Part shown: positions 24,676 through 27,139 of the stretch, piece by piece
How the letters are laid out: the number at the start of each line of letters is the position of its first letter
Numbering within the stretch: the first letter of the stretch is position 1
Source of the DNA: a virus
Taxonomy: Duplodnaviria > Caudoviricetes
Strand: one strand, 5' to 3'
DNA length: 27,871 nucleotides
IMG/VR virus record: IMGVR_UViG_3300032216_001242
Coordinates: 1 to 27,871 of that record
Translations under genes and position numbers: made by a program
Notes under the pieces: model-generated
What the model was told of the DNA's origin: nothing
The model's database searches: none
Seen by the model: only the letters and a program-made list of their open reading frames with translations

Positions 24676-25074
24676 TCAGCTCAGGTCGATGGACACCTGT
24701 AGGTCGCCCTGCATCTGGATCTGCTTCCTCTCGATGGGCTTGAACCCTGCGCGATCAAGGATGTCTGCGGCACTCTGCATCTTCACGAGTTCACTCTTAG
24801 CGTTACGAGCCAATCCAACCATGGTCGCCAGTGCTGCTGGTGCGTGCCTACCCAGAGTGAGCATGGTCTCATCATAAATCGCTTTACATATCAATGGGTT
24901 CTTCATGAGGCGATTGGCTTCGACGTGCGCTGATTTCTCTGCGTAACCAGCCTCTACCGCTGCGGCCTTCAGCTGCCCGCCGTTCGCTACATACTCATCC
25001 ACGAAGCGGCTCTGTTTGTCCGTCATTCCCTTGCGTGGCTGATACTCGATGAGCGACAGATCAGTGTTGGACAT
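24676..25074 (-). CDS. terS: Terminase small subunit
   Basis: MTDKQSRFVDEYV..G...AAAVEAGYAEKSAHVEANRLM HTH-like motif, AADILDRAGFKP; AAGGA RBS before ATG 25074. Confidence 0.85.
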   Translation of the reverse strand: MSNTDLSLIEYQPRKGMTDKQSRFVDEYVANGGQLKAAAVEAGYAEKSAHVEANRLMKNPLICKAIYDETMLTLGRHAPAALATMVGLARNAKSELVKMQSAADILDRAGFKPIERKQIQMQGDLQVSIDLS

Positions 25075-25138
25075 GGTCTCTTGTTCCTTTCTCAATGGAC
25101 CCCCCTGCCCCCCAATGTGAGGGAGTATGAGATTGTGT

Positions 25139-25152
25139 CAATGCACAGGTCA
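25139..25152 (-). promoter_or_regulatory. Late motif copy upstream of terS (TGACCTGTGCATTG running into TTGACA)
   Basis: Motif merges with a consensus -35 TTGACA; lies just downstream of a terminator. Confidence 0.7.
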
Positions 25153-25158
25153 CGGAGC

Positions 25159-25178
25159 AAAAGGGGGGAAGACCCCCC
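25159..25178 (-). terminator. Terminator of the 25184-25405 gene
   Basis: GGGGGG-TCTT-CCCCCC-TTTT on the minus strand. Confidence 0.65.
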
Positions 25179-25183
25179 TCGAT

Positions 25184-25405
25184 CTACGCCCAGCGGATAA
25201 GATCGGCACGAGTGACCTCGTTCAAGAACAGTTCGAGCTTGGCGCGCAGTCGTTCGATATAGGCGTGTTGGCTACCGATCTCAGCCTCAATCTTGATGAT
25301 CTGCGCATACAGAACGTGGCGGTCGTAAAGGTTCTTGCTCTGCAAACAGGCCAATTTGGCGTTGCGAAGTTGAGCCAACATCAATGTCTTTGATTTATGT
25401 GTCAT
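25184..25405 (-). CDS. Small basic helical hypothetical protein
   Basis: AAGGAG RBS before ATG 25405 (MTHKSK...); own terminator. Confidence 0.6.
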   Translation of the reverse strand: MTHKSKTLMLAQLRNAKLACLQSKNLYDRHVLYAQIIKIEAEIGSQHAYIERLRAKLELFLNEVTRADLIRWA

Positions 25406-25451
25406 CGTCTTGCTCCTTAAACAGAAACCAGCCTCCTTGCTGGCCCGCGTA

Positions 25452-25534
25452 GTGTCCATGTCCGCAGCTCGGCGCAAGGGCGGCTTCTTGGCCGCTTGCG
25501 AAGCCCTTGAGCAAGAGACCGGACATGATACGAT
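25452..25534. promoter_or_regulatory. Long branched hairpin with TTGAGC-16-TACGAT in one arm (Frpo-like ssDNA promoter candidate)
   Basis: CATGTCCG 25457-25464 / CGGACATG 25520-25527; CAAGGGC 25475-25481 / GCCCTTG 25503-25509. Confidence 0.5.
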
Positions 25535-25678
25535 CAGCGGACAGCGGAGAGGCCGACGCTCCGCAGACGCCCGGCGTCGAGGACAGCGGCGACATGATAG
25601 GCGTGACTCAGCCATGCGTGTGGAGCAGAAGACGCTTTGTAATGGAGGCGAGCTATGCAATCCGAGGTAGAGCACCAC

Positions 25679-25718
25679 ATGCACTACCCCTGCACGGTAT
25701 GCACTACCCCTGCACGGT
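25679..25718. repeat. Perfect 2 x 20 bp tandem repeat ATGCACTACCCCTGCACGGT
   Basis: Read directly from the sequence. Confidence 0.9.
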
Positions 25719-25779
25719 TTGCCTCGCGCGCGTATCCTTACCTATAGATAATATATACTAGATATATAATAACCATTAG
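25679..25779. other. Origin-like element: tandem repeat, CGCGCGCG and AT-rich tract
   Basis: TATAGATAATATATACTAGATATATAATAA in an otherwise GC-rich non-coding region at the strand switch. Confidence 0.45.
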
Positions 25780-26233
25780 CTCACCTTGAGAGAGTATCCC
25801 ACGCTCGCAAGCTCGCCGCTCGCCATGACGCTGGGGTGGCGTCGTCTGGTGACGCAGAGGAAGGTCGATTGCCGCCCCGCGCACAGGGGCTGGAGCGGCT
25901 TCGCTGGTTCAAAGGCAGATCGGTGGCCCTGCACGCACTGACAGCCTCTGGCGGGCTTCTCTGTGGCTCGACAGCTGCACCGATCCGTGTCCTGCACGAC
26001 AAGAGGCTGCGCCGCCCACAGGCGCGTTTGCAGCTCCTCGCTTTTCAGTGCGGCAGGCCGGGCATCGAGCGGCAGAGACCAGCGTCATGATGCTCCCTCG
26101 TCGCCTGATCACAGATTGAAAACAGAACTTCACAGAGAAGGCTTAACTGGAGTCGCGTCCCCCAATGCTTTCCCACGGCAGTGATGCTGCTTGGCCATAA
26201 GTCGCCCCTGTGGAACGCGGACTCATCTCGCTG

Positions 26234-26335
26234 TGTCCCTTAACGCATCACGCACGCCCTATGGCTGTCAACGGGCAAGCCGTTCCCCTCGCTACGCTCG
26301 GTGACATCCAAGATGCGGCGAGATTGCTGGGGACA
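26234..26335. promoter_or_regulatory. Long branched hairpin upstream of the first rightward gene (Frpo-like candidate)
   Basis: TGTCCC 26234-26239 / GGGACA 26330-26335; TGTCA 26266-26270 / TGACA 26302-26306; left arm reads TTGACA on the minus strand. Confidence 0.45.
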
Positions 26336-26372
26336 TCAGCGGATGGTCCGCTGACAACCACAGGAGCAAGAC

Positions 26373-26900
26373 ATGACCAAGAAATCAACAGACCTCGTCA
26401 ACGCAATGGAATCCGCTTTGACCGTTTTCGCTGGTGAATTTACAGATTTTCAACAGAAAGTCGATCAAGACGGCGAAGTCACGATCTACAACGGAATGGC
26501 CTACATCCAGCGTCGAATGCTGAACGGCATCTGCTACACCGCTGAAAAGCTGATCGAGGAGCAGTATGAAACGCTCGGCACTGCGGGCAAGAAGCTCGCC
26601 CGTCTCGTCCGCTCGCAGGACGGCAACGAGATCGGCACCAAGCAGATCGAGGATCAGACACGTTGGGTCCAGCGGTTGCAGCTGCAAGTGGCGGTTCTGA
26701 CCAACTGCTTCGAACAGGCGAAGGCCGTGCATCTGAAAGAACTGGGCGAGGCCTACGTCCCTTATCGCCAGCGCACCAAGCCAGACGCCGCCAAGGCTGC
26801 GATCAACGGCGAACCCTCAGAGGCTCTGCGCAACGCGATGGCGATCCTCGAAACTCTGGGAGCCAACGTTCCTGATCCTACCGCCCTGCGTATCCACTAA
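26373..26900 (+). CDS. Hypothetical protein (helical), probable early gene
   Basis: AGGAG RBS, GC3-biased codons, followed by a terminator. Confidence 0.8.
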   Translation: MTKKSTDLVNAMESALTVFAGEFTDFQQKVDQDGEVTIYNGMAYIQRRMLNGICYTAEKLIEEQYETLGTAGKKLARLVRSQDGNEIGTKQIEDQTRWVQRLQLQVAVLTNCFEQAKAVHLKELGEAYVPYRQRTKPDAAKAAINGEPSEALRNAMAILETLGANVPDPTALRIH

Positions 26901-26934: not shown

Positions 26935-26956
26935 CCCTTTCATGGAGGACGACGAC

Positions 26957-27139
26957 ATGTCGCACGACATCAACAATCTCATGAACCGCTGGCGCGAGGG
27001 TCTGCTCGCACACACCGAAATTCTTTACCTTCTGATTTGCATCAATGCGGAGACCACAGACGCTCTGCATCAGGTGCAAAAAGTCATGCAATCAGAGTTT
27101 TTGTCTCAATTTCCAACGGAGGACGACCATGCCAACTAG
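26957..27139 (+). CDS. Small hypothetical protein
   Basis: GGAGGA RBS before ATG 26957. Confidence 0.6.
   Translation: MSHDINNLMNRWREGLLAHTEILYLLICINAETTDALHQVQKVMQSEFLSQFPTEDDHAN

Follow-up and report, generated by a model that had tools for sequence, protein, structure and literature searches.

The hairpin that precedes the first rightward gene of the phage studied here is best explained, at a probability of about 0.6, as a promoter of the Frpo type that would act on single-stranded DNA (ssDNA) and serve the first early gene through the σ70 RNA polymerase of the host, a reading that rests on sequence comparison. The whole stretch of DNA analysed (27,871 nucleotides; hereafter the window) had been described in an earlier note as carrying a mirror-image pair of such promoters around an origin-like core. 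For the right element, covariation, strand asymmetry, loops of DNA type, promoter geometry and an apex shared with plasmids lend support to the Frpo-like reading, whereas the left element is weak.

The window represents most of a podophage genome and comprises the virion module and early genes. A leftward operon encodes terS, terL, portal, major head, tail tube, internal virion, fibre and endolysin proteins, and small rightward genes begin at 26373; a scan of the window genes found no RNA polymerase gene. The phage's TerL shares 61% identity with that of the cultured pelagiphage EXVC031P Hodr of Pelagibacter and 87-88% with those of two uncultured phages, L006 and L007, which have a gene resembling S24 repressors as well as an HTH_36+DnaT initiator; the window terS shares 38-70% identity with the terS of relatives. 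The TerL search that matched Hodr gave no match to HTVC010P or Skadi-1, an orthologue of the first early gene is absent from HTVC010P, Skadi-1 and MEP301, and HTVC010P has no hairpin at the equivalent place. Judged by either the terminase or the first early gene, the window phage is not an HTVC010P/Skadi phage sensu stricto. Its relatives suggest an alphaproteobacterial host; six genome matches were uninformative as host clues, being viral contigs that had been binned with MAGs from unrelated taxa. A 125-bp repeat of Skadi was left unused as a terminus clue, as it lies inside terL and Skadi lacks the orthologue (PMC10504331).

The features around the right element are:

24676..25074, minus strand: gene for the terminase small subunit (terS; PHROG 51/2538), opening the leftward virion operon
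26190..26381, minus strand (template): right hairpin (z −6.5), enclosing RBS and ATG, with compensatory pairs, and the subject of the family survey
26244..26271, minus strand: gene-distal promoter face, TTGACA at 26271-26266, 16 nt, GATGCG at 26249-26244, then a 4-nt bubble
26265..26306, minus strand: branched apex common to plasmid leading-region elements, with a GC-GTA-GC mini-hairpin at 26291-26297
26336..26354, plus strand: right short perfect hairpin, 4 of 8 pairs compensatory, at the transcription start predicted from spacing
26373..26900, plus strand: conserved first early gene, 175 aa, with an orthologue in 67 relatives and in Hodr

The earlier note had drawn the right stem at 26234-26335; the stem is real, but its true extent is about double, giving a hairpin of ~190 nt with 69 Watson-Crick pairs. 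Its z score is the same on either strand and the energies are about equal, so the window's own copy is neutral as to which strand folds. Since the stem encloses the RBS and the start codon, the short hairpin would be an alternative fold of the 3' arm. DNA folding and covariation in related phages had been proposed as a check, and the right hairpin passes it, being kept by compensatory change: across six phages, nine of 22 named pairs are compensatory and 97.7% of cells pair, although the structure was drawn from those same sequences and the controls therefore lean toward the fold. A near-identical strain from run X5 has exchanged both bases of one short-hairpin pair (T-A to C-G). TTGAC is invariant in all six aligned phages, and the loop of the mini-hairpin is GTA, GCA or GAA in the window's clade, with the G and the A fixed. 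An Rfam scan of the window returned five matches at chance level (E 0.9-3.1), and the scan of 16 related loci one tRNA and nothing else.

The right element is real and family-wide. Survey loci were picked by terS (the best 80 of at least 509 viral relatives, plus six genome contigs); 59 of the 86 were usable, with the orthologue present, its start assigned and 230 nt of sequence before it, and 36 remained after removal of near-duplicates. A template-strand hairpin with z < −3 was found in 24 of these 36 distinct phages versus 5 of 36 in-gene control windows, counts that overstate independence because the loci are related; at two of the 12 misses a strong hairpin precedes a gene inserted in first position. 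Throughout the group the hairpin sits before the first rightward gene adjoining terS, at terS-to-gene distances of 291-1120 nt, and in Hodr a 170-nt hairpin (z −7.3) occupies the same slot before the orthologous gene. A gapped pattern scan yielded 19 viral loci, three of them known relatives.

Some individual loci depart from this layout. L161 and L196 apparently carry two separate hairpins in a row, of which one precedes a small inserted gene and the other the conserved gene; hairpins in series also occur in plasmid leading regions. In L148-L150 and L146, the DNA upstream of the orthologue folds differently and lacks the shared apex, and L148-L150 have repeated short hairpins of the GCTTCGCT type. 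A 65-aa ORF at 26942-27139 is missing from L006, L007 and run X4, marking a second variable slot after the conserved gene. On the other side of the hairpin, a conserved leftward TTGACA stands ~65 nt upstream of terS (window 25100-25150), and Hodr has a perfect promoter at the same place (17-nt spacer, TATACT), from which we infer that terS owns a promoter. Between the terS promoter and the hairpin, L006 (3690-3740) and L007 (3715-3750), which both lack the core, have three to five TGACAG repeats, possible sites for the terminase or a regulator.

The mismatches between the arms indicate that, in the family of the right element, it is likely the template DNA strand that folds. They were counted on a strand-neutral alignment of the arms, where A·C on the coding strand equals G·T on the template. 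Coding-strand A·C and G·T mismatches stand at 70:20 in the 24 family hairpins (297:298 in the shuffle null) and at 31:11 in nine other phage elements, whereas ten T7 RNase III regions, taken at their presumed coordinates, show the opposite bias (4:17); the G·U-rich transcribed strand of stems of the RNase III type is not seen in these phages. Some nulls lean mildly towards A·C (207:161 and 198:138), the F-plasmid positive control is weakly skewed (18:9; 4:3 for isolated mismatches), and 46 metagenome elements are unskewed over all mismatches (139:116) and stand at 71:31 for isolated ones. By its nature the test gives the same answer for template DNA and for antisense RNA of the same sequence. 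C-GNA-G mini-hairpins in 34 elements are found 21 times on the template strand versus five times on the coding strand (200 shuffles: mean 8.5, maximum 18); the enrichment is absent from the 46 metagenome elements (19 versus 15). Such GNA mini-hairpins are described, in the accessible part of PMC13037366, as much more stable in DNA than in RNA and as occurring at G4, ssiA and N4 sites.

A plain σ70 scan of the window found no site, with 0.7 expected. The σ70-like elements that the earlier note had located in the gene-distal arms are indeed there: TTGAGC at 25507-25512, 16 nt, and TG-n-TACGAT at 25529-25534 on the left, and TTGACA on the minus strand at 26271-26266 on the right. The right −10 had been called poor, rightly so: −11A is its sole key base, and this −10 is base-paired in the MFE structure. 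In either window element −11A is reached only with a 16-nt spacer, and the gene-facing −35 copy stands at a distance of 72 nt from the start codon. Alphaproteobacterial promoters have commonly lost −7T (PMC7703639). An automatic search picked a paired TT-hexamer with at least four of six −35 matches in 25 of 30 elements; with a spacer of 17 or 18 nt, −11A is present in 16 of the 25 distal arms versus 3 of the 25 gene-facing arms; several of these −35 picks, Hodr's included, look wrong by eye. Most relatives have a distal-arm promoter that is already complete in linear DNA, from which leftward firing would be possible. At six closely related marine loci, the distal −35 and its TACTTT or TACCTT −10 flank a hairpin and are 42-44 nt from each other in linear DNA; no −10 is present in the gene-facing arm. 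Neither duplex direction thus holds a promoter at these loci, and one would assemble only on folding. This geometry is the strongest point against ordinary duplex promoters, yet it comes from a single clade.

The left element and the core between the two hairpins comprise:

25161..25647, no strand: swappable cassette of 490 bp, carrying the left gene and left hairpin
25184..25405, minus strand: left gene, an orphan of 73 aa with no Pfam or PHROG match, found only in its own two-member cluster
25390..25417, minus strand: left RBS and first codons, an inverted near-copy of 26362-26388
25426..25445, no strand: left short hairpin, a fold at the predicted 5' end of the left mRNA
25452..25534, plus strand (template): left hairpin, TTGAGC at 25507-12, 16 nt, extended TACGAT at 25529-34
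25680..25715, plus strand: four TGCAC repeats, likely initiator-binding iterons, matching arrays in the initiator genes of relatives
25743..25772, no strand: AT-rich tract, likely unwinding element, with three G+C in 30 nt, the lowest in the window

Probably the left element is a second copy that has diverged and is carried on an optional cassette. Short hairpins are present at both places where they had been claimed, and the RBS context described as identical does recur, AGGAGCAAGAC having exactly two copies in the whole window, at 26362 (+) and 25407 (−), but the left copy has an extra G before the ATG. The two start regions align at a score of 42, against a maximum of 32 among 299 other start-region pairs of the window; together with the common 72-nt spacing, this suggests that the elements share an ancestor. 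Of the left stem proposed at 25452-25534, the motifs are in place, including a GCGAAGC mini-hairpin at 25498-25504, but folding barely exceeds chance (z −1.4 to −2.2) and depends on the segment folded. No left-element homologues were found for covariation, and its plasmid matches were dismissed as chance (H31 adjoins a universal stress gene).

Contigs from X2, X4 and X9 depart from the window sequence at 25160, and one X2 contig rejoins it at 25648, the relatives in these three runs having other sequence in place of the cassette. The cassette is joined to its surroundings in run X1, which covers the window best and may be its source, and is present in one independent study (X6). An invertible segment, considered on account of the inverted RBS repeats, was not retained, as contigs of eight runs hold no strand-changing joint, a result that does not by itself prove absence. 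The window region is spanned by one contig in run X1. The records P0003, P0090 and P0092, which have two diverged versions of the conserved gene plus the left gene, are all listed with a longest contig of 50,870 bp, which could reflect composite assembly elsewhere.

The origin-like core of the earlier note gains support, although it would be a stand-alone origin of limited distribution. The TGCAC repeats match, at 82% over 39 nt, an array in the HTH_36+DnaT initiator gene of L007, and the L006 initiator gene has the same repeat and spacing; the AT-rich tract follows. Together the iteron match and the AT-rich 30-mer make an origin likely here. In a lambda-type origin, iterons and an AT tract lie inside the O gene. 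The same order of initiator-gene iterons and AT tract is found here against the genes of relatives, which were used for the comparison, the window phage's own initiator gene lying outside the window; unlike lambda's, the window iterons are outside any gene. Parts of the core are common to near relatives in runs X2, X4, X5 and X7. A general two-promoter, origin-coupled system is not borne out: relatives keep only the rightward hairpin, none of the 19 long terS spacers among them having a leftward gene with a hairpin, and the iterons of L006 and L007 are ~3.9 kb away to the right, inside the initiator gene. These two phages also lack the core and the cassette; the mirror pair is therefore specific to one lineage, a feature at strain level.

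In the mechanism that we favour, folding of the right hairpin in the template DNA would confine expression of the first early gene to times when the template is single-stranded. The gene-distal arm would supply the non-template −35 and −10, and the imperfect −10 region would lower the barrier to melting. Transcription would begin at about 26335-26336, so that the mRNA carries a hairpin at its 5' end and leaves the RBS accessible; in RNA reading through from upstream, both RBS and AUG would be locked inside the long stem. Unwinding of the likely origin just upstream (iterons and AT tract) is the preferred trigger in this lineage because both hairpins lie on prospective leading-strand templates; in relatives without an adjacent origin, ssDNA would have to come from resection of the incoming end or from displaced-strand replication. 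A broader and tentative possibility is that Hodr-like podophages have a plasmid-style leading region, in which host RNA polymerase fires the early operon from a hairpin that exists only in ssDNA; in the present lineage, an origin flanked by two such hairpins would in addition prime both leading strands. The hairpin would then form on end resection or origin unwinding, and early expression would sense the single-stranded state of the DNA.

A link to plasmids is given by the 21-nt apex, which recurs at 102 metagenome loci. The gene that follows is DUF4326-like at 74 of them, ArdC at five and another at 16 (methylase, DUF2958, DUF6878, one phage orthologue and a few likely chance matches), and seven loci end too soon. 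DUF4326 and ArdC genes are typical of plasmid leading regions. In the conjugative plasmid pCMU01, the apex precedes DUF4326 in a run of ardC, parB, strawberry-notch, toprim and DUF2493 that points at traC/traA; with a Ti-type placement of oriT, this run would be the leading region and its template the transferred strand. For pMC4 and the Nitrobacter plasmid, no relaxase is annotated within 16 kb and the orientation of oriT cannot be read. The hairpins of these alphaproteobacterial plasmids and ICEs (pCMU01, pMC4 and Nitrobacter plasmid 2) have the identical 21-nt apex at the same position before the RBS, and precede DUF4326, ArdC, DUF2958 and methylase genes; they differ in lying on conjugative elements and in their unrelated outer stems, and are themselves known from sequence.

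Frpo1 and Frpo2 of F and ssi1-3 of ColIb-P9/pESBL are class 1 ssDNA promoters in the accessible text of PMC9849209, PMC12672017 and PMC11541004, and resemble the right element in being long imperfect template-strand hairpins right before early genes; their folding rebuilds the −35 and −10, as that of the right element may do. The right hairpin, in contrast, measures ~190 nt and belongs to a tailed dsDNA phage without a conjugative ssDNA phase. Searched by blastn against 72,556 plasmids, F included, the two window elements gave two short matches each and no enterobacterial match, and a conjugative leading-region location is found only for the plasmid relatives of the apex. The right element is therefore Frpo/ssi-like in its working, not a member by sequence or location. 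Class 2 ssDNA promoters before klcA/ardA (PMC12672017, as far as its accessible text goes) offer another comparison: the region before F klcA has a CAAGGG...CCCTTG stem top, as do the left element, L161 and L180, a likeness limited to the apex and non-significant by blastn. The promoters of the N4 virion RNA polymerase, in the available part of PMC13037366, likewise combine a template-strand hairpin and a GC-GNA-GC loop in a tailed phage, but they are 5-bp hairpins with their own vRNAP, whereas the present element has a ~70-bp stem and σ70-type boxes. RSF1010 ssiA and ssiB are a pair of single-strand signals that lie next to an origin in opposite orientations, and in this they resemble the window pair, which is found only in this lineage.

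A template-strand DNA fold with mini-hairpins of the G4/ssiA priming-site type would also suit a single-strand initiation signal, at which host RNA polymerase or primase makes a DNA primer and gene expression is secondary. Both window hairpins point along leading strands away from the likely origin, and Frpo itself has been suggested to prime (accessible part of PMC12672017). We consider such a primary function unlikely, as the element keeps its 72-nt distance to the RBS of the first gene in both window copies and precedes whichever gene comes first, and as the iterons are ~3.9 kb distant in L006/L007; priming and an Frpo-type promoter are in any case not mutually exclusive. It is improbable, too, that the distal arms hold conventional duplex promoters directed outward from the gene, in which case the fold would be either an operator palindrome or a structure of minus-strand RNA. 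The right arm would then make an antisense or leftward RNA, and the left arm would transcribe into the iterons and activate the origin; in lambda, transcription from pR activates the origin. The blindness of the wobble test to antisense RNA and the collinear distal promoters of most relatives agree with this, and it is more likely for the left element than for the right, as the left hairpin is weak and its promoter, a fair extended −10 facing the iterons, could just as well work in duplex DNA. For the right element, however, the split −35 and −10 of the six marine loci (42-44 nt) and the GNA triloops that favour DNA speak against it, and it leaves unexplained why both arms stay paired.

Early RNA of T7 is processed by RNase III cleavage, and the long imperfect stem enclosing RBS and AUG could similarly belong to a 5' leader RNA, with the RBS masked until the structure is opened by a protein or cut by RNase III. 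The coding strand folds well too (z −6.5); yet the mismatch bias (70:20 and 31:11) runs opposite to that of the T7 regions (4:17), there is no Rfam match, and neither the conserved, paired −35 box nor the leading-region setting on plasmids is accounted for, all of which makes a leader RNA very unlikely. That the element always adjoins terS might point to a packaging or end-processing signal, an idea we can hardly credit: the apex also occurs on plasmids without a terminase, and the hairpin keeps a fixed distance to the RBS, not to terS (291-1120 nt from terS to the gene). The Frpo-like promoter remains the preferred reading of the right element.

The product of the gene that this promoter would serve is predicted as a long coiled-coil hairpin with an acidic tip (G-D-E-I; pLDDT 89). 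The antiparallel coiled coil has a nearly invariant tip, with the consensus R...GDEIS and E86. Acidic-tip coiled coils of similar appearance occur in Gre, DksA and other factors that act through the secondary channel of RNA polymerase. No Pfam, PHROG or Atlas match was found for the 175-aa protein, and a fold search gave generic coiled coils and uncharacterised phage proteins, none significant; DksA2 (E 0.58) and GapR were rejected as candidates on their non-significant scores. The early region of Hodr encodes ArdC, a YqaJ-family exonuclease and SSB. ArdC, an ssDNA-binding anti-restriction protein annotated as hypothetical in the record of L134 (13573-14457), is confined to the Hodr clade, occurring in 11 of 107 loci searched and in one of 45 surveyed loci with 1.5 kb downstream.

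The earlier note knew of no description of such promoters in podophages, and none for host RNA polymerase surfaced for tailed phages in the open-access literature searched, in which no paper names both 'Hodr' and 'pelagiphage'. In the accessible text of the papers cited here, all ssDNA promoters for host RNA polymerase are on conjugative plasmids, which enter the cell as a single strand. The Frpo-like reading can be tested directly because the cultured Pelagibacter phage Hodr carries the element. It ties the phage element to a predicted family of alphaproteobacterial plasmid leading-region hairpins and, if true, would imply a routine and exploited single-stranded phase in the cycle of a dsDNA phage, where it is unexpected, and would link transcription to DNA processing or replication in a widespread group of aquatic tailed phages.
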